From a virus (lineage: Duplodnaviria > Heunggongvirae > Uroviricota > Caudoviricetes), in the IMG/VR virus record IMGVR_UViG_2563366942_000013: a stretch of DNA of 10,458 nt. One strand, 5' to 3'. Under the pieces are notes generated by a model, which ran no database searches, was not told the DNA's origin, and saw only the letters and a program-made list of their open reading frames with translations. Each line of letters opens with the position of its first letter. The first letter of the stretch is position 1. A program made the translations under genes and the position numbers. Shown here in pieces: positions 1-9,119 of the stretch.

Positions 1-1284
1 TTAAAGACTTCTGGAAGGTTGCGCAGCTCTGACAACACGAAGTTGATCTTCCGCAGCGTCTTCCAGCGCACTTAAATCACGGTCTTTCACTTCTGGCATT
101 TTCAGCGCAGAGATTAAACCAATCACTGAATATGCCATGATCATAATGGCGATCGGATACCAGGATTCCGTCATGGTGCAGAAAATACCCGCCAGGATAG
201 GACCAAAACCGGAAGCGATAAGACCACCAATTTCTTTAGAAATAGCCATCCGGGTAAAGCGGTTTTTACAGCCGAACATTTCTGCCATGGTAATGTTTTC
301 CAGAGCAAATAATCCCAGCACCGCACAGTTATGAATCACAATCAGTGCAACCATAATGGTGCTCGGGGCATAGCTTTTATCTACGATGATAGAAAGCATT
401 GGCCACGCCAGCACAATCGCAGAGGTATTCATAATAATATACGGGATCCGGCGACCTATTTTATCGGATAACCAACCAAGGAACGGAATGGTCATAAAGC
501 CGAGAATCGAACTGATCATCAATGCATCTGTTGGAATTGCTTTGTTAAACAATAACGTCTGCACTAAATAGCCTGCAAGGAAAGTCTGAATTAAACCGGA
601 GTTACCAGCCTGACCAAAACGCAGCCCTGTTGCCAGCCAGAAGGATTTGCTCTGGAACATGCTACCAGCAGGTGCAGGTTTTGCTGTCGGTTGGTTGCTG
701 TCGTTAACCTTCTCAAAGACCGGGCTTTCTTTCAGATTCATACGCAACCAGATAGCAAAGACCATCACGACAACGCTCGCCAGGAACGGTATACGCCATC
801 CCCACGCCAGCAGTTCCTCTTTACTGAGAATGAAGAACATAAAGGCCCAGATTGCCGTTGCGCTTAAGGTTCCGCAGTTAGTTCCCATAGCCACAAATGA
901 GGAGATAATTCCGCGCTTACCTTTTGGCGCATATTCCGCCAGCATCGTACCGGCACCGGAAATTTCCGCGCCTGCCCCCAGCCCCTGAATAATACGCAGC
1001 GTCACCAGCAAAATTGGCGCAAACACACCAATTTGTGCATAGGTCGGCAGCACACCAATTAAGGTGGTACAGATCCCCATCATAGTTATGGTAATAAAGA
1101 GCACTTTTTTACGCCCGATTCTGTCGCCCATTTTGCCGAAAATAAATGCTCCGACAATACGCGCCACATAACCTGCACCGTAGGTTCCCATTGCCAGAAT
1201 TAACGCCATTGCCGTTGATGATTCAGGAAAAAATATTTCATGAAACACTAACGCTGCGCCGAGCGAATATAACTGGAAATCCAT
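1..1284 (-). CDS. ydfJ: MFS (metabolite:H+ symporter-type) transporter YdfJ, probably N-terminally truncated by prophage insertion
   Basis: 427-codon ORF with MFS signature G-x3-D-R-x-G-R-K (FGKMGDRIGRKKV) and many hydrophobic helices. The ORF begins M-D-F-Q-L-Y, inside the conserved TM1 motif of ProP/KgtP-type carriers, with an in-frame TGA two codons upstream. Symbol from recalled K-12 gene order ydfJ-ydfK-pinQ. Confidence 0.8.
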   Translation of the reverse strand: MDFQLYSLGAALVFHEIFFPESSTAMALILAMGTYGAGYVARIVGAFIFGKMGDRIGRKKVLFITITMMGICTTLIGVLPTYAQIGVFAPILLVTLRIIQGLGAGAEISGAGTMLAEYAPKGKRGIISSFVAMGTNCGTLSATAIWAFMFFILSKEELLAWGWRIPFLASVVVMVFAIWLRMNLKESPVFEKVNDSNQPTAKPAPAGSMFQSKSFWLATGLRFGQAGNSGLIQTFLAGYLVQTLLFNKAIPTDALMISSILGFMTIPFLGWLSDKIGRRIPYIIMNTSAIVLAWPMLSIIVDKSYAPSTIMVALIVIHNCAVLGLFALENITMAEMFGCKNRFTRMAISKEIGGLIASGFGPILAGIFCTMTESWYPIAIMIMAYSVIGLISALKMPEVKDRDLSALEDAAEDQLRVVRAAQPSRSL

Positions 1285-2303: not shown

Positions 2304-2619
2304 TATAATAAACTTACTTTTTTATCATTTTTCCACTTTAACAACATTTTGCTCCACTTTTCCACGACCAAACAACTTGAAATCTGGTTAAAATAACACG
2401 CAACACTATTCTTCTTCCTTGAGTCCGCCCGGAACTCGAAAAACAAACCGAGTTAAAGCCATTTTTCACAAAATCGATTTTGGGTCTCACCAAAATTACG
2501 GGGTTGCATACGCATTCGTTTATTTTCGAACGTGTACATACAAACATGCACAAAAATAATCAAAATTATTTTCTGAGATGCATTATGATATGAACACCAA
2601 TTTCGTATAGAGTCTCACT

Positions 2620-3210
2620 ATGTCTCGAATTTTTGCTTACTGTCGGATATCAACGCTGGATCAGACCACCGAAAATCAACGCCGGGAAATCGAAAGTGCA
2701 GGTTTTAAAATCAAACCTCAGCAAATAATCGAAGAACACATTAGCGGCTCAGCAGCAACCAGTGAGCGTCCTGGTTTTAACCGGTTGCTTGCTCGCCTGA
2801 AATGTGGTGATCAATTGATTGTGACAAAACTGGATCGCCTTGGTTGTAATGCAATGGATATCAGGAAAACAGTGGAACAACTGACCGAAACAGGTATCAG
2901 AGTGCATTGCTTAGCATTGGGGGGCATTGACCTGACCAGTCCAACAGGAAAAATGATGATGCAAGTAATTTCAGCAGTCGCTGAATTTGAACGAGACCTT
3001 TTACTTGAACGCACTCATTCCGGGATAGTAAGAGCCCGGGGCGCAGGGAAACGTTTTGGTCGACCACCTGTGTTAAATGAAGAACAGAAACAGGTGGTAT
3101 TCGAACGGATTAAGTCAGGTGTAAGTATAAGTGCCATTGCCCGGGAATTCAAAACCTCGCGGCAAACCATTTTAAGAGCCAAAGCAAAACTTCAGACACC
3201 TGACATATAA
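2620..3210 (+). CDS. pinQ: Serine recombinase / DNA invertase (Pin/Gin/Hin/Cin family)
   Basis: 196 aa; N-terminal resolvase/invertase catalytic motifs (YCRISTLDQ with active-site Ser, [10 protein letters not shown]) and C-terminal helix-turn-helix ([18 protein letters not shown]). Size and context match PinQ/PinR of Qin/Rac-type prophages. Confidence 0.9.
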
Positions 3211-3307
3211 AAAATAATCTCGGTGTGAGATGCCTTACGTCTTCCAAGACCCCTTCCTTGCCGTAAATGGAAAGATACATCTAATTATAGAATTTATATG
3301 TTTTACC

Positions 3308-3427
3308 CTACGGCAGTGCTGGCCATTCAATATCCTGTGCAGTTGACGTATCAACACGGTTCAGCAACACCCGATACTTCTTCCAGGCTTCCCGCAACGA
3401 GGTTTCTTCCTCCGTTGCATATACAGC
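3308..3427 (-). pseudogene. 3-prime remnant (39 codons) of a tail fibre assembly gene (tfa)
   Basis: Minus-strand frame translates [39 protein letters not shown] then stop (3308-3310); this matches the conserved Tfa C-terminal motif ([16 protein letters not shown]...IEWP) as recalled from lambda Tfa. An in-frame TGA lies immediately upstream (3428-3430) and there is no start codon. Confidence 0.6.
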
Positions 3428-3428
3428 T

Positions 3429-3431
3429 CAC
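3429..3431. repeat. Target-site duplication (CAC), left copy
   Basis: CAC immediately outside both IS termini (3429-3431 and 4742-4744); 3-bp duplications are typical of IS3-family transposition. Confidence 0.6.
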
Positions 3432-3455
3432 TGAACCGCCCCGGGTTTCCTGGAG
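3432..3455. repeat. IS terminal inverted repeat (orfB-proximal end)
   Basis: TGAACCGCCCCGGGTTTCCTGGAG; partner at 4718-4741 in inverted orientation. Confidence 0.8.
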
Positions 3456-3473
3456 AGTATTTTATCTGTGAAC

Positions 3474-4364
3474 TCAGGCTGCCAGATCATCGTTTCCGAT
3501 GGAAGCATAATAAGCTTTTTCTGCTTCTGCCGGAGGAGTATGGCCCAGCCTTTCCAGCAATCGTCGATTGTTATACCAGTCCACCCACGTGAGTGTGGCC
3601 AGTTCCACTTCTGCACGGTTTTTCCAGCTCTTACGGTGTATTACCTCCGCTTTGTAAAGACCATTGATGCTCTCCGCCATCGCGTTGTCATACGAGTCGC
3701 CTGTACTTCCTGTTGATGCCAGTAATCCGGCTTCCTTAAGCCGCTGTGTGTAGGCCAGCGATACATACTGAGAACCTTTATCACTGTGATGGACCGTGCC
3801 GGACGGTCGACGGGCCCATAACGCCTGCTCCAGTGCATCCAGCACGAATGTCGTCTCCATGGACGATGAGACCCGCCACCCCACAATGTATCCGGCAAAC
3901 ACATCAATGATGAACGCCACATAGACGAAGCCCTGCCATGTGCTGACGTAAGTAAAATCAGCCACCCACAGCTGGTCAGGTCGTTCTGCCACGAACTGAC
4001 GGTTTACGCGGTCGCCTGCGGCAACGGCTTTCCGGCTGATGGTCGTACGGACCTTTTTACCCCGGAGAACACCGGCAAGTCCCATAACCGCCATGAGACG
4101 TGCCACAGTGCATCTGGCCACTCTGATACCTTCCCGTAACAACTGACGCCAGACTTTACGCACACCGTATACCTTGTGATTTTCATCGTATACGCGCTGT
4201 ATCTCTTTCTTCAGCCAGTCATCGCGCTGCGCACGGGCACTGCGTTTATCCGGATGATGTCGCTGTTGCTGACAGTGGTAATACGTTGACGGGGCAATAT
4301 GCAGTTCGCTGCATAGCGGTCCGACCCCGTACTGCTCACGCAGCTTATCCAGCAGTGGCATCAT
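3474..4364 (-). CDS. IS3-family transposase OrfB (DDE catalytic domain, 296 aa), normally expressed as OrfAB fusion by -1 frameshift
   Basis: DDE-type motifs (WVADFTYV..., [25 protein letters not shown]); ATG overlaps the orfA stop (ATGA) in the -1 frame. Confidence 0.9.
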
Positions 4365-4372
4365 TTTTTCCA
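4361..4372 (-). other. Putative programmed -1 ribosomal frameshift window (A6 run at orfA/orfB overlap)
   Basis: Minus strand reads TGG AAA AAA TGA with orfB ATG overlapping the stop; the A-run is a plausible slippery site by analogy with other IS3-family elements. Exact heptamer not verified. Confidence 0.45.
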
Positions 4373-4687
4373 GAGGCGGTCGAACTCCGCCTTCGCAAAA
4401 TAAGCGGAAGCCTGGCGAAGGATATCGTTACTGCGGCGCAGTTCACGATTTTCACGCTCCAGCTCTTTCAGACGCTGACGTTCAGCGGTGGTGAGCCCTC
4501 CATCACCGCCCCCGGTATCCCGCTCATGCTGGCGAACCCAGACACGCAGAGTCTCCGGCGTACAGCCAATCTTTGGAGCAATGGAACAAATTGTCGCCCA
4601 TTGTGAGTCATATTCGCCCTGACTTTCCAGAACCATACGGACTGCCCGTTGACGGACTTCAGGGGAAAAACGAGTATTTTTAGTCAT
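4361..4687 (-). CDS. IS3-family transposase OrfA (DNA-binding subunit, 108 aa)
   Basis: [53 protein letters not shown]... (HTH plus leucine-zipper-like region), recalled as characteristic of IS629/IS1203 OrfA. Confidence 0.9.
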
Positions 4688-4717
4688 CCTGTTTACCTCT
4701 TTCTCAGGAAGTTTAGT

Positions 4718-4741
4718 CTCCAGGATTCCCGGGGCGGTTCA
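4718..4741. repeat. IS terminal inverted repeat (orfA-proximal end)
   Basis: CTCCAGGATTCCCGGGGCGGTTCA, reverse complement of the 3432-3455 repeat with 2 mismatches. Confidence 0.8.
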
Positions 4742-4744
4742 CAC
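4742..4744. repeat. Target-site duplication (CAC), right copy
   Basis: See left copy. Confidence 0.6.
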
Positions 4745-4750
4745 CTTTTT

Positions 4751-5044
4751 TCACCCACGATTAACCAACAGCCAGACCAGCAGACACGCCACCACCGGCA
4801 CAGCAAAATCCATCAGGCTTGCCACATCCCACGCACGCGGATCAAAACCGCCCCACCACGGCATATTCATACGCTTGCCATGCCCGAACATTTCAATCCA
4901 GCGATATTCTGCCTGGGTATGTTCACGCGCAATGAAGAACGTACAACCAGCTATCGCCCCGTAAGCCCAGTTTCCGGTAAAAAGACCAACCAGTACCTGC
5001 GCAGCCACAGCACAAAGTGCATGAAGGAAAGGTGTTATATCCAT
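4751..5044 (-). CDS. Small integral membrane protein of unknown function (97 aa)
   Basis: Perfect Shine-Dalgarno AGGAGG 4 nt upstream of ATG (reverse complement of 5049-5054); two to three hydrophobic segments (FLHALCAVAAQVLVGLF, FAVPVVACLLVWLLV). Last gene of the tight minus-strand operon; stop is 6 bp from the IS target duplication. Confidence 0.55.
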   Translation of the reverse strand: MDITPFLHALCAVAAQVLVGLFTGNWAYGAIAGCTFFIAREHTQAEYRWIEMFGHGKRMNMPWWGGFDPRAWDVASLMDFAVPVVACLLVWLLVNRG

Positions 5045-5054
5045 TACGCCTCCT

Positions 5055-5759
5055 TTATCCGATATCGCTTCGGGAAACGGATAACAACTTTAATTCTGAC
5101 TCAAGTTCATCAACTCTTTCAGTCAGCTTCTGGATATGGTGAATCAGTGGAACAACCAGACGTTCGTACATTACACCTTCGGCAACAAGGCCATTGCTGG
5201 AAATGGTTTCCGGTGCATCATCTTCGTTGGCTGGTCGCCAGTGAACAAACTGAGGGGCAATTTCTCCAACTTCCTCGGCAATCAATCCATAGAATCCCCA
5301 GTCACGCCTGTCATTTTCGCATTGCGACCTGTACCACACAGGGCGCATCCTGAAAATGAGATCGGCGTGCTCTGAATCTATCGTCTCTACTGAATGTTTA
5401 TAGCGGATAGACGATGTTGACCGCAGCACAGACGAAATTGCAGGGTCAGGATTAAGATAAAGATTTGCCGCCGCTGTAGTTGTGCCCAATCCCCATAAAT
5501 AAAACGCTTCACGGCCAGTCAGCGGGTAAAAATCTCCGCCATAACGACCACTTTCCAGATCGTTCACTTCCACTTTGTTTTTCAGCTTATTATCAACTTC
5601 AGTTTTTGTGTATCTGGTGCTGATATCCTGCTTTGCACTGGCCATATCAGTCTGAAGCGTTGATACTTTTCCGTTAATAGAGGAAATATCTTCCTTTGCT
5701 TTACTGACATCTCCCTTCAGCGTGGTGATGTCTCCCGGAATTACTGTTGATGTAGCCAT
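5055..5759 (-). CDS. Short fibre-like protein: N-terminal coiled-coil region plus C-terminal peptidase-S74-type intramolecular chaperone domain (234 aa)
   Basis: GAGG Shine-Dalgarno 7 nt upstream. C-terminal half matches the S74 chaperone-domain pattern as recalled: S-S-I-R-Y-K-H-S-V (Ser116/Lys121 spacing like S-D-x-R-L-K-x-N-I), RPVWYRSQ, GFYGLIAEEVGEIAPQFV, VPLIHHIQKLTERVDELESEL. N-terminal heptad-like repeats (DITTLKGDVSKAKEDISSINGKVSTLQTDMASAKQDIS). Confidence 0.7.
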   Translation of the reverse strand: MATSTVIPGDITTLKGDVSKAKEDISSINGKVSTLQTDMASAKQDISTRYTKTEVDNKLKNKVEVNDLESGRYGGDFYPLTGREAFYLWGLGTTTAAANLYLNPDPAISSVLRSTSSIRYKHSVETIDSEHADLIFRMRPVWYRSQCENDRRDWGFYGLIAEEVGEIAPQFVHWRPANEDDAPETISSNGLVAEGVMYERLVVPLIHHIQKLTERVDELESELKLLSVSRSDIG

Positions 5760-5768
5760 TTCTCTACC

Positions 5769-6050
5769 TCACATCCAGCCACGAAGTTGATGCTCAACAG
5801 CAACCGCGTATTCATCGAATAATGACGATATTTGCGTATCCTTAATAATGCGCACGTTTACAAAATATCCATCTTCCTTAACACATACCGGTTCGCCATC
5901 TTCAGTCAGCTCTCCGGTTTCTTTGTACACGTTACCTATCACATCAATCAGAATATCATCCTGCATCGACTCGTCATTATAATAGCCAATACTTCCCATA
6001 AAGGCCGAAAAGTCGGCCCTGTCGGCAAATTTGAGTGTTAAATCTTTCAT
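5769..6050 (-). CDS. Hypothetical acidic protein (93 aa); possible fibre chaperone or accessory protein
   Basis: ATG overlaps the upstream stop (TAATG) indicating translational coupling; GGGGAG about 8 nt upstream. No recognisable motif; highly acidic. Confidence 0.5.
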   Translation of the reverse strand: MKDLTLKFADRADFSAFMGSIGYYNDESMQDDILIDVIGNVYKETGELTEDGEPVCVKEDGYFVNVRIIKDTQISSLFDEYAVAVEHQLRGWM

Positions 6051-6913
6051 TAGATTGACTCCCCCATCTGAGCATCAGTCAATGCCTTGTGCCAAATACG
6101 CAGATTTCGAACGTGTCCAAATAGGTGACGGTTGCCGGATGATGATTGACCACCAATATTAATGAAGCCTCCTGTATATTTGTGTTTTTTATAAGGAGAA
6201 ACTACCTTAGCACCAATATTACCGTTAACCACAACACACAATTCTCGACTTTCTGTGAATCTAAAGCCGATAATGCTTTTTCTCTCTGGTCGTTCTATAA
6301 CGCTTTTATATTCTATTTTAGTGCCTTTACCATTTGTAATGATTGCGCGTGCTCCCAAAGATGTATACCCCAAATACATATAACTTTCATCTGCAATTTC
6401 AGTTGTATCTCCCGTAGTGGAAATATTAAGAATACGTGCGCTACCTTCTTTGTTTGGCGATTCATCCCAATTGGTATTAACTTCTGCTAATGAACTAATA
6501 GCGGGATTGCACCAATTTAGAGAAATGGGGACCGTTACAATATCGCTGGCGCGTGTTACAGGGGATGCGCCTGTTATAATAAACGATGAAGCGCATGCCC
6601 CACCTTCAACTTGAGGGGTCGCAATATAAATATAATCATCCGCGCCAGTGCCCACTCCTTTTGCCGGGGCATACTGAACCATTCCACCTATCATATTTTC
6701 TGTATCAAGTGCCTTAATTGTCGCCTCAAAAAAGATCCATTTGCTTGCTTCATCTTTAACAGCCCTTGCAGTAATGCGATTAGCGGCACCACCCGTCTTA
6801 TCAATAGATAAATCTGTCGTATTTAAGTAAGCGTCACCTAAGAATGTGTAGGTAGAACCATCATAGTTTTCAAATCGTAATCGGCATCTTAAATTTGGAG
6901 TGCCACTTTGCAC
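6050..6913 (-). CDS. LamG/concanavalin-A-like lectin-domain protein; probably the distal receptor-binding part of the side tail fibre (287 codons, GTG-initiated as drawn)
   Basis: C-terminus shows LamG-type pattern (VVVNGNIGAKVV...GGFINIGGQSSSGNRHLFGHVRNLRIWHKALTDAQM). In the same frame as stf, separated by a single TGA (6941-6943) and 9 sense codons; no ATG and only a weak RBS at the GTG. Confidence 0.6.
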   Translation of the reverse strand: MQSGTPNLRCRLRFENYDGSTYTFLGDAYLNTTDLSIDKTGGAANRITARAVKDEASKWIFFEATIKALDTENMIGGMVQYAPAKGVGTGADDYIYIATPQVEGGACASSFIITGASPVTRASDIVTVPISLNWCNPAISSLAEVNTNWDESPNKEGSARILNISTTGDTTEIADESYMYLGYTSLGARAIITNGKGTKIEYKSVIERPERKSIIGFRFTESRELCVVVNGNIGAKVVSPYKKHKYTGGFINIGGQSSSGNRHLFGHVRNLRIWHKALTDAQMGESI

Positions 6914-6940
6914 CCTGCATGATATGGTTACATACTTTTC

Positions 6941-8455
6941 TCAGCCTGTTACATCAAAACCTTTACTGCCGGAAACGGTTACTATGTTAATCGCTGAAAT
7001 TTGCCCTACCATTTCTGGTTTTAATGTAAATTTTGCGTACTGGAATCCGAAATCATCTACACCTGATGCACTTAAGATCATATTTGACGACTTGTTCCAT
7101 TTAGTCGGATTTGTTGAATTGATTAGCAGGTTAGTTCTTTGCCCCTCAATAAGCAGGCCATCACGTTCAAATCGTGGCTCGTCAATGGCAGCCTCTGTCA
7201 GCACACCAGATTTATTAATGTAAGTTGCTTTCGATGCGCGTTTAAACTTTACAATCTTGTCGCCAGGCATTGTTATTTCATCGTCGCCAATAACAATTTT
7301 TTTATATGATGGCGAAAAGCCCGTAATCATATCCAGTGAATCATTAAACGGTATCCACACATCAGGCAGTGGCTGTAAGACATATTTATACGGCTCTGCT
7401 GCCTGACTTGCATACTCTCTGGCTGCGTCTTCACTTGCTTTAGCTGCTGTCTGGCTTGCTGCCGATGCTTTCGCCGAGTTCGCCGCTGCAGTCTCGCTTG
7501 TCTTTGCATTGGTTTCACTGGTTTTTGCTGCTTTTTGACTGTTGGCTGATGCAGTGGCAGAAGCAGCCGCCGCGCTTGCAGAACTGGCTGCGGCACTCTC
7601 GCTTTGGGCCGCTGCATCCTGACTGCTTTTCGCCGCAGTTTCACTGGCTTTGGCATTCGTTTCGCTGGTCTTCGCTGCCGTCTGGCTGGACTTTGCGTTA
7701 GTTTCACTCGTCTTCGCAGCTTTCTGGCTGTTAGCCGCAGCAGTTGCTGATCCAGCTGCTGAAGTCGCAGAACCGGCTGCCGCGCTCTCGCTTTGGGCTG
7801 CTGAAACCTGGCTGTTTTTTGCTGCAGTTTCACTGGCTTTAGCATTCGTTTCGCTGGTCTTCGCTGCCGTCTGGCTGGACTTTGCGTTGGTTTCGCTTGT
7901 CGTTGCGGCTGTCTCGCTATTTTTCGCGTTGGTTTCTGATTTTTTAGCTGCTGTTGCGGAGTTTGCCGATGCAGTCTGCGAGGCCGCTGCCGCCTGTGCG
8001 CTGTTAGCTGCATTCGTTTCTGAGGTTTTCGCCGCGTTCTTCGATGATGCCGCTGCAGTTTCGGATTTCTTTGCCGCCGCTGCGCTCTGAGAGGCGGCTT
8101 CAGCGTTGCGTGCCGCTTCTTCCACCATTTCCTCAAAACGACGCAATGCCTCCGGCATGACATCATCTTCCGTCATGGCACCGAGAAAATCATTCAGCGT
8201 ACCTGGTCTGGAACCTTCATAGACGGTAATGGTTCCGGCATGTGAAGGCGGAAAACCTTCAACCAGCAGGGTGACGCTGTACTGGCCATACTCAACATCC
8301 ATGCTGTAACGCCCGGCTTCATCCGGATTTTCAGAGGCCACTGTGTTGACCAGTACCGTGGTGCTGTTACGCTTTGCCTTCAGTTGAATAGTGCAGTTCT
8401 GTATTGGTTTTCCCGCACCATCTTTCAGCACACCTGAGATTTTTACTGCTGCCAT
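6941..8455 (-). CDS. stf: Side tail fibre protein Stf (lambda-like N-terminus, Ser/Ala/Thr-rich repeat region, distinct distal segment)
   Basis: MAAVKISGVLKDGAGKPIQNCTIQLKAKRNSTTVLVNTVASENPDEAGRYSMDVEYGQYSV... closely resembles the lambda/Rac Stf N-terminus as recalled. GGAG Shine-Dalgarno 5 nt upstream of ATG at 8455 (track start at GTG 8461 is probably an over-extension). Ends at TGA 6941-6943. Confidence 0.85.
   Translation of the reverse strand: MAAVKISGVLKDGAGKPIQNCTIQLKAKRNSTTVLVNTVASENPDEAGRYSMDVEYGQYSVTLLVEGFPPSHAGTITVYEGSRPGTLNDFLGAMTEDDVMPEALRRFEEMVEEAARNAEAASQSAAAAKKSETAAASSKNAAKTSETNAANSAQAAAASQTASANSATAAKKSETNAKNSETAATTSETNAKSSQTAAKTSETNAKASETAAKNSQVSAAQSESAAAGSATSAAGSATAAANSQKAAKTSETNAKSSQTAAKTSETNAKASETAAKSSQDAAAQSESAAASSASAAAASATASANSQKAAKTSETNAKTSETAAANSAKASAASQTAAKASEDAAREYASQAAEPYKYVLQPLPDVWIPFNDSLDMITGFSPSYKKIVIGDDEITMPGDKIVKFKRASKATYINKSGVLTEAAIDEPRFERDGLLIEGQRTNLLINSTNPTKWNKSSNMILSASGVDDFGFQYAKFTLKPEMVGQISAINIVTVSGSKGFDVTG
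7596..7973. repeat. Imperfect tandem direct repeats inside stf (189-bp spacing, about 115-bp conserved core, nested 42-bp/14-aa sub-repeats)
   Basis: CTCTCGCTTTGGGC... recurs at 7596 and 7785; protein shows repeated AAKTSETNAKxSxT units. More degenerate copies extend to about 7440-8060. Confidence 0.6.
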
Positions 8456-8463
8456 ATCCACTC

Positions 8464-8493
8464 CACAAAAAAGCCCGCCTGAACCGGCGGGCT
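8464..8493 (-). terminator. Rho-independent terminator downstream of lom / upstream of stf
   Basis: Minus strand: GCCCGCC-GGTTCA-GGCGGGC followed by TTTTTTGTGGAG; the T-tract runs into the stf Shine-Dalgarno. Confidence 0.6.
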
Positions 8494-8519
8494 GTCATAA
8501 CACTGTGTTACCTGGCTAA

Positions 8520-9119
8520 TCAGAATTTATAACCGACACCAACGATGAAACCGTCAGTGCGCCAGTCACCACTGCCAGAACCTTCATAAGCAATATCAAT
8601 GGCCACGGATTCGGTCGGGTTAAACTGCACGCCAGCCCCCCACGCCAGAGACGTGTTGCTGTGGCGATCGTCATCACTTCCGGTCAGCACATCGTGCGTT
8701 TTCCCCTTGTTGTCAGTTACGCGGAGATAATCCCCGGAGAACGTCGAAACACGGCTGTAAGCCACACCTGCCATCGCATAAGCACTGAACCATTCATTCA
8801 CGCGTACAGATGGCCCCGCCATCATGCTGAACCAGCGGTTACGCACTGAATCTTCATGCCAGCGGGTATCGCTGTAATGCGTTTTTTGCTCACCTTTGGC
8901 ATTGGCATAACTGAATGACGTCACCAGCCCCAGCGTGTCCGTAAATTCATAACGGTATTTCACGTTAATGCCCTTCAGGTCATCACTGCCTGGCATATCA
9001 GTATGGGTTTGAAGATACCCGGCGCTTAGTGTGGACTGATGCTCTGCTGCGCTCGCTGACGTACCAGCAGCAACCAGCCAGACTACTGCGGACAGAATAA
9101 CAGCACATAATTTACGCAT
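8520..9119 (-). CDS. lom: Lom/Ail/PagC-family outer-membrane protein (prophage moron)
   Basis: 199 aa with signal peptide (MRKLCAVILSAVVWLVAAGTSASA) and C-terminus DIAYEGSGSGDWRTDGFIVGVGYKF matching lambda Lom as recalled; GAGAGG RBS upstream; location between J and stf as in lambda. Confidence 0.9.
   Translation of the reverse strand: MRKLCAVILSAVVWLVAAGTSASAAEHQSTLSAGYLQTHTDMPGSDDLKGINVKYRYEFTDTLGLVTSFSYANAKGEQKTHYSDTRWHEDSVRNRWFSMMAGPSVRVNEWFSAYAMAGVAYSRVSTFSGDYLRVTDNKGKTHDVLTGSDDDRHSNTSLAWGAGVQFNPTESVAIDIAYEGSGSGDWRTDGFIVGVGYKF

Follow-up and report, generated by a model that had tools for sequence, protein, structure and literature searches.

The DNA around the recombinase gene pinQ in the viral sequence analyzed here (10,458 nucleotides of the IMG/VR caudovirus record IMGVR_UViG_2563366942_000013; hereinafter, the window) very probably reflects three independent, layered events, namely, a transposon relic, a swap of a tail fiber module and the insertion of an IS element, at the right end of a lambdoid prophage of the Qin/Rac type. 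A local invertible segment next to pinQ never existed, and none was lost. This finding is at odds with a sequence-only reading of the same DNA, according to which an invertible segment with alternative fiber and tfa genes had been deleted or replaced, leaving the invertase orphaned. Judging from its nearest relatives, pinQ does not descend from the Din-family invertases and is instead a relic of a Tn3-family resolvase.

The sequence that follows pinQ is the genuine C-terminal end of a Tfa protein and no chance match, as the sequence-only reading had recognized. On the minus strand, positions 3427 to 3311 encode 39 residues that are followed by a TAG stop codon (3308-3310) and preceded by an in-frame TGA (3428-3430); there is no ATG, and the frame holds no listed open reading frame of at least 30 amino acids. 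Frame 1 of the interval 3308-3431 was rejected, given that it contains stop codons and is one base off from the right frame, which starts at 3427. The 39 residues match the Caudo_TAP domain (Pfam PF02413) with an E-value of 6.4e-15 and a score of 55.9 bits (the cut-off is 22.1), the match covering positions 95-130 of the 131 positions of the profile. The frame, the Pfam match and the nucleotide homology jointly delineate a tfa pseudogene at 3308-3427 on the minus strand. Within it, the homology to the full-length tfaQ gene of Escherichia coli K-12 and to the tfa gene of phage 2H10 extends from the stop codon to position 3419 and then breaks, so the true remnant (3308-3419) consists of 36 codons, out of the 191 codons of tfaQ, and the stop. 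Positions 3420-3427, which stay in the same open frame, are junction sequence, and so the first three of the 39 codons (AVY) lie outside the tfa homology. Thus, the earlier description of this sequence as the last 39 codons of a tfa-like gene is accurate with respect to the nature of the gene end and has to be shortened with respect to its length. The 36 residues differ from residues 156-191 of TfaQ at two positions, the other 34 being identical.

The surroundings of the remnant follow the K-12 arrangement, with the window colinear with the K-12 genome through ydfJ, ynfT, ydfK, pinQ and the pinQ-tfaQ spacer into tfaQ. Compared with the tfaQ and tfaR genes of the K-12 prophages Qin and Rac and with lambda-type Tfa in general, the last 36 codons and the stop are approximately 95% identical to tfaQ at the DNA level, and here, too, a 97-bp spacer leads to pinQ and the two genes converge, an orientation noted already from the sequence alone (the remnant is on the minus strand, and pinQ, at 2620-3210, is on the plus strand). 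Unlike tfaQ and tfaR, the remnant retains 36 of the 191 codons, has no start codon and has no matching stf C-terminus in front of it. A complete Tfa ORF, with a start codon and an N-terminal part (about 190 amino acids), is absent, the homologous codons being limited to these 36, and no cognate stf is located immediately upstream, where three unrelated genes and the IS element intervene. The scar itself is ordinary and already known, being annotated as a pseudogene in relatives: for E. coli CE10, GABEEC10 and HCM-26C-1, the RefSeq label of the equivalent 111 bp is that of a tail fiber assembly protein, partial. At the other end of the colinear region, ydfJ (1-1284, minus strand) lacks its N-terminus, as it does in K-12, where Qin interrupts this gene, which places the window at the right extremity of a prophage that occupies the Qin attachment locus. 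In HCM-26C-1, the same pin/scar arrangement is found at the Rac locus as well.

The distal part of stf and most of tfa are replaced by a different fiber module, as previously surmised. The module consists of genes for an 801-amino acid Stf, a 93-amino acid protein, a 234-amino acid fiber protein and a 97-amino acid predicted membrane protein. The side tail fiber gene (6050-8461, minus strand), which was identified by a profile match, encodes a phage_tail_N N-terminus. The 234-amino acid tail fiber protein (5055-5759, minus strand) contains a Peptidase_S74 intramolecular chaperone domain (PF13884, E = 4.6e-6), and a fiber that carries its own chaperone domain plausibly would need no Tfa. The gene for the 97-amino acid protein (4751-5044, minus strand) is the last one in the module, with the tfa remnant located on its 3' side in the relatives. 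This protein has no family assignment; its gene ends the module in numerous lambdoid phages (HannyBb, PhiR49_1, 4A7 and the Lambda_ev phages) and, in the lambdoid phages that carry it, is always found at a mosaic boundary. Between positions 7400 and 8100 (minus strand), the Stf shaft contains a repeat tract rich in Ala, Ser and Thr, with units of the KTSETNAK type, and the internal repeats, offset by 189 bp, are about 82% identical. The stf gene differs from that of GABEEC10 by 17 substitutions, with no insertions or deletions, and is broken by a nonsense change, GGA to TGA, at 6941-6943 (minus strand). Together with the IS insertion, this change suggests that the prophage is decaying.

The remnant and the module are separated in the window by an IS3-family element of 1310 bp (3432-4741, minus strand), identified by its ORFs, terminal repeats, pseudoknot and target duplication, so the earlier statement that the remnant directly abuts the new module does not hold for this DNA. 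The element contains orfA (4361-4687, minus strand) and orfB (3474-4364, minus strand), with a programmed -1 frameshift and an ALIL frameshift pseudoknot (4290-4406, 120 bits), and is bounded by imperfect 41-nucleotide terminal inverted repeats that begin with TGAACCGCCCCGGG. In the length of 1310 bp, the orfA/orfB organization with the ALIL pseudoknot, the TG...CA ends and the 3-bp duplication, it is the same as IS1203/IS629, and its counterparts in relatives bear the annotation IS1203 family. The target duplication, CAC, is present at 3429-3431 and 4742-4744. In relatives that lack the IS, a 19-bp spacer joins the remnant to the stop codon of the 97-amino acid ORF, and the left part of this spacer is seen in the window at 3420-3431 (it begins with TATACAGCTCAC and includes the 3429-3431 copy of CAC). 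When the IS and one CAC are removed, the window becomes colinear with CE10 and GABEEC10. Taken together, the duplication and the IS-free junctions indicate that the IS is a later simple insertion and not the cause of the tfa truncation. An IS at the position seen in the window was found in none of the 5426 complete E. coli genomes searched. Independent insertions of IS1203 are present nearby in other strains, namely, inside pin in CE10 (locus L001, 9581-10888) and inside the 97-amino acid ORF in HCM-26C-1 (locus L017, about 7300-8640). Three independent IS1203/IS629 insertions within approximately 1.5 kb in different strains may point to a local hot spot.

The junction between the remnant and the module is an old, widespread scar of a module swap. 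The IS-free junction, represented by a 381-bp probe, is covered over at least 80% of the probe length in 927 of the 5426 complete E. coli genomes. The window also matches the isolated phage HannyBb with 99.2% identity over 1113 bp, from the start of pinQ through the remnant into the 97-amino acid ORF. On the tfa side, the breakpoint (CCGTTGCA joined to TATACAGCTCACC) is exactly the same in phages 4A7 and PhiR49_1, whose remnants are shorter or end differently and are followed by other cargo. The cargo downstream of the scar is sitABCD in 4A7, ybcY/ompT in PhiR49_1 and pinQ-ydfK in the window. The identity of the tfa-side breakpoint in 4A7 and PhiR49_1 implies that the truncation happened once and that the scar travels with the fiber module. 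Compared with K-12, the window shows no differences at 3308-3367 and five at 3368-3419, the latter being partly common to other phages that carry the module; this pattern would fit the attachment of the pinQ-ydfK arm through a crossover within the scar and is suggestive only. From the three phage contexts and the coverage classes of the junction probe, it can be inferred that the conserved 3' end of tfa acts as a homology patch for the joining of downstream cargo. Short fragments labeled as tail fiber assembly protein are found also deeper in the cargo of PhiR49_1 (locus L009, 3282-3416) and PhiR68_2 (locus L014, 2493-2678), and scars of the tfa 3' end seem to recur in the b-regions of lambdoid phages.

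Two other accounts of the remnant have to be weighed against a module swap. The position of the IS, exactly between the remnant and the fiber module, might be taken to mean that the element itself truncated tfa, either by deleting adjacent DNA or through recombination of two IS copies, and in doing so brought the module to pin. The probability of this course of events is negligible: the element is flanked by the CAC duplication, and the junction that results from its removal is identical to those in CE10, GABEEC10, HannyBb, 4A7 and PhiR49_1, none of which has an IS at this place. The other account holds that the remnant is kept for a function, as a terminator or 3' untranslated region for pinQ and for the late operon that converges on it, or as the source of a small peptide, and its 90-100% conservation in hundreds of genomes and in one isolated phage speaks in favor of such a role. 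This we regard as improbable, given that the remnant has no start codon, follows an in-frame TGA and is out of frame with the 97-amino acid ORF; that a terminator scan of 3211-3431 yielded no terminator-like site; that an Rfam scan of the interval between pin and the remnant found no match, the only one being the pseudoknot of the IS; and that the length of the remnant varies by lineage, as expected of neutral DNA.

With the remnant assigned to a module swap, the question is whether pinQ ever had an invertible segment next to it. Crossover sites of the Din type (26 bp) were sought in the window with a pattern search that allowed up to three mismatches and were not found. A position-weight matrix was also built from gix, cixL/R and pixL/R; real sites score 27-30 with this matrix, whereas the best score in the window is 9.9, against a median of 9.7 for shuffled sequence. 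The scores did not exceed 9.9-12, the level of shuffled sequence, in the window, K-12 Qin, 2H10, mEp460, CE10, GABEEC10 (49 kb), PhiR49_1 and the whole of HannyBb. A search of the window for inverted repeats recovered the IS ends and chance pairs only, and the entire 45-kb genome of HannyBb, which contains the same remnant junction, yielded neither a crossover site nor any convincing inverted repeat. The sequence TCTTCCAAGACCCC downstream of pinQ looks like a crossover site by eye; this candidate was rejected, being a Tn3-type terminal repeat.

An identical or 99% identical PinQ is encoded in 2H10, mEp460, Kati, PhiR68_2, PhiR34_1 and K-12 Qin, and in all of these, a single full-length stf-tfa pair is located convergently with pinQ, with no second tfa/stf pair and no Din-type site detected. 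Among the PinQ contexts inspected, which include six isolated or induced phages and K-12 Qin, all eight have either one stf-tfa pair or the scar, and none has an opposed stf'/tfa' pair. No clear invertible segment was seen either in the context of a 61% identical homolog from an Erwinia phage. The absence of a local substrate even beside a complete tfa shows that the truncation did not orphan pinQ. Hence the proposed deletion or replacement of an invertible segment fails in the phages with the same PinQ and a full tfa, whereas the notion of a pin without a substrate is borne out insofar as no local substrate is seen, a condition that is independent of the tfa truncation and long precedes it. 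The gene order differs as well: in Mu and e14, the crossover site lies approximately 55 bp upstream of the start of the invertase gene, that of P1 overlaps cin at its 3' end, and in all three systems, the site adjoins the 5' start of the variable (S) part of the fiber gene, never the 3' end of tfa. A Fis-dependent enhancer is annotated within the cin gene of P1.

The origin of pinQ is indicated by the comparison of its product with other small serine recombinases. The intact gene (2620-3210, plus strand) encodes a protein of 196 amino acids that consists of a Resolvase domain (E = 2.5e-36) and an HTH_7 domain (E = 3.8e-11), with the catalytic Ser11 aligned, and differs from the K-12 PinQ by two amino acids (99% identity). 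It shows 36-39% identity to the Din invertases PinE, Gin and Cin, which are far more similar among themselves than they are to PinQ; the mean column identity in the four-sequence alignment of PinQ with these three proteins is 72%. Against the solved structures in the PDB, the score for Gin, 105 bits, is only slightly higher than the 83 bits for gamma-delta resolvase. By contrast, a database search retrieved a large set of proteins with 77-86% identity to PinQ, many of them encoded on plasmids. One of these, a TnpR (P0014) that is 84% identical to PinQ, is present on 512 contigs and, in four of the five places shown, is encoded divergently from a 994-amino acid transposase of the DDE_Tnp_Tn3 family, across a 160-bp interval. 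The transposon unit spans 3.8 kb (for example, in NZ_CP012500, locus L020, 4823-8637) and is bounded by 38-bp terminal repeats, GGGGTCCGCTTGGAAAACGGAAAATATCCCACGCTAAG and of the GGGG...ACGCTAAG type; the element is common on enterobacterial plasmids and was detected in complete form in 186 plasmids from PLSDB. It is a compact tnpA-res-tnpR transposon of the Tn3 family. The interval between tnpA and tnpR contains three pairs of TGTCCGAAA-type half-sites with a spacing like that of Tn3 res I, II and III, which we take, by analogy with Tn3, to be sites I, II and III.

The similarity between the window and this transposon extends well beyond the recombinase gene. In BLAST comparisons, the window matches the transposon at 82% nucleotide identity from position 2540 to 3248-3254; the match begins within res, about 80 bp 5' of pinQ, includes the whole gene and continues for about 44 bp beyond it, as far as the outer edge of the right terminal repeat. 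The 5' part corresponds to a decayed res relic (2524-2619, plus strand; the BLAST homology starts at 2540) in which site II (2547-2578) and site III (about 2591-2609) are decayed and still recognizable. The right half of site I would be the sequence TTTCGAACG at 2524-2532, a colinear match at 7 of 9 positions, whereas the left half is unrecognizable, with 2 of 9 positions matching. Distal to 2540, the resemblance to res lacks significance by itself, the observed score being reached in 66 of 1000 shuffles; the argument from the site I half-site depends on this one colinear match. On the 3' side, a degenerate right terminal inverted repeat is located at 3219-3253 (minus strand; reverse complement GGGGTCTTGGAAGACGTAAGGCATCTCACACCGAG compared with GGGGTCCGCTTGGAAAACGGAAAATATCCCACGCTAAG), with 26 of 35 positions matching when counted by hand. 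The tnpA gene and the left terminal repeat are absent from the window. The pinQ cassette resembles the plasmid-borne tnpR and res in 84% of the amino acids and 82% of the nucleotides. What sets it apart from the plasmid transposon is the lack of a transposase, of a left repeat and of the left half-site of site I, as well as Cys76 in place of an arginine. The boundary of the homology nearly coincides with the crossover point of res, so the loss of the transposase arm through an event at the res site would fit. A literature search retrieved no paper that links PinQ or PinR to Tn3 resolvases, and the Tn3 ancestry of these proteins is the only part of the present findings with some novelty.

The active site of PinQ deviates from those of both its resolvase relatives and the Din invertases. 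Codon 76 (2845-2847) encodes a cysteine at the position equivalent to the catalytic Arg71 (Tn3 resolvase numbering), and mutation of R71 abolishes recombination by Tn3 resolvase and slows cleavage approximately 1000-fold (PMC2794168). The sequence KLDRLGC is present in all PinQ and PinR copies examined, including those of K-12 and every phage copy, whereas Gin, Cin, PinE and the Erwinia phage homolog have an arginine at this position. Among the 120 nearest cluster representatives, the motif contains arginine in 112, arginine was identified by eye in three more, and five have cysteine. In terms of the Tn3 catalytic set (Y6, R8, S10, D36, R68 and R71), PinQ keeps Y7, R9, S11 and R73, and has glutamate for D36 and Cys76 for R71, so that the set is incomplete. 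Nevertheless, pinQ and the tnpR of the transposon have diverged with a dN/dS of 0.155, and pinQ is intact in thousands of sequences, which means that PinQ is conserved for something.

Three views of the current state of PinQ were weighed. Under the sequence-only reading, pinQ is a Din-type invertase orphaned when the adjacent invertible fiber segment was deleted or replaced. The window does have in common with the Din switches (Mu G/Gin, P1 C/Cin and e14 P/PinE) a gene for a small serine recombinase beside tail fiber genes; Gin is the best match of solved structure, the region of distal stf and tfa was truly replaced, and no crossover site is left in the window. Unlike these switches, the window has no 26-bp sites, no opposed stf'/tfa' pair, a different gene order and Cys76. 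We consider the orphaned invertase highly unlikely because the second fiber pair and the crossover site are missing even where the same PinQ adjoins a full-length tfa, because the genes are not arranged as in Mu, e14 or P1, and because PinQ, at 36-39% identity to the Din invertases, is 84% identical to a TnpR of the Tn3 family and is encoded between transposon relics.

A view that deserves more credit, though still short of an even chance, is that PinQ is a working invertase whose substrate, of the Din type, is remote, namely, the e14 P segment, so that the tfa scar is irrelevant to it. According to Kirigo et al. 2025, the K-12 PinQ acts in trans to invert the e14 P segment of 1797 bp and in this way blocks the adsorption of phage T2, the inversion of this segment rises from about 30% to 88% upon overproduction of PinQ, and PinQ inverts no DNA next to itself (PMC12529663). 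The inversion in trans already answers, for K-12, the question of the missing substrate. The K-12 PinQ also has Cys76, and the PinQ of the window is intact, nearly identical to it and evolves under purifying selection; PinQ may be an active invertase that acts in trans despite its ancestry and Cys76. Against this view stand the cysteine at a position where loss of the arginine abolishes recombination by Tn3 resolvase, the TGTCCGAAA half-sites of the res type, unlike pix or gix, that accompany the nearest relatives of PinQ, and the report that in a pinE mutant, the P segment is locked although pinQ and pinR are present (PMC12529663). Moreover, an e14-type P segment, at 80% coverage or more, is found in 284 of the 5426 genomes and so is rarer than the junction described here, with its 927. 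Conceivably, and we put this forward tentatively, PinQ and PinR are domesticated Tn3-family resolvases outside the invertase lineage that have lost the crossover site and one catalytic arginine and yet are under purifying selection across thousands of genomes and in phage isolates, and so might function as DNA-binding regulators or as modulators of true Din invertases such as PinE rather than as catalysts.

Starting from the observed anatomy, the homologies, the identities of the junctions and the lack of crossover sites, we infer the following order of events for the layered origin of this locus. Long ago, a compact Tn3-family transposon with tnpA, res and tnpR would have landed approximately 54 bp downstream of tfa in a lambdoid phage and later would have lost its transposase, its left end and, of res site I, the left half. 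Left over from this element would be the pinQ/pinR cassette, in which the resolvase gene is flanked by res sites II and III, both decayed, and by the degenerate right repeat, with no local substrate for recombination in any context examined. In one phage lineage, the distal part of stf and most of tfa then would have been swapped for another fiber module, leaving 36 tfa codons as a non-coding scar attached to the gene for the 97-amino acid protein. Because lambdoid phages have a conserved tfa 3' end, the scar may have served as the patch through which pinQ-ydfK, ybcY/ompT and sitABCD were joined. In the strain at hand, IS1203/IS629 would then have entered the 19-bp spacer between the scar and the module.

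By itself, the scar is a marker of a module boundary in a mosaic lambdoid genome and carries little weight, and the adjoining IS is strain-specific noise. The pinQ and pinR genes have been named in the manner of invertases ("P segment inversion", and "DNA invertase" in several phage records), PinQ was lately put forward as an invertase for phage defense, and the present case cautions that the name pinQ is no ground for inferring a missing invertible segment. It also raises the biochemical question of whether PinQ with Cys76 is catalytic. Should PinQ and PinR indeed be domesticated resolvases that act as regulators or modulators, the published system of anti-phage inversion by PinQ would need to be read anew, with the P segment of the pinE mutant locked despite the presence of pinQ and pinR. 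More generally, the 3' end of tfa may be a shared joint at which lambdoid phages exchange fiber modules and downstream cargo, such as pinQ, ompT/ybcY and sitABCD.
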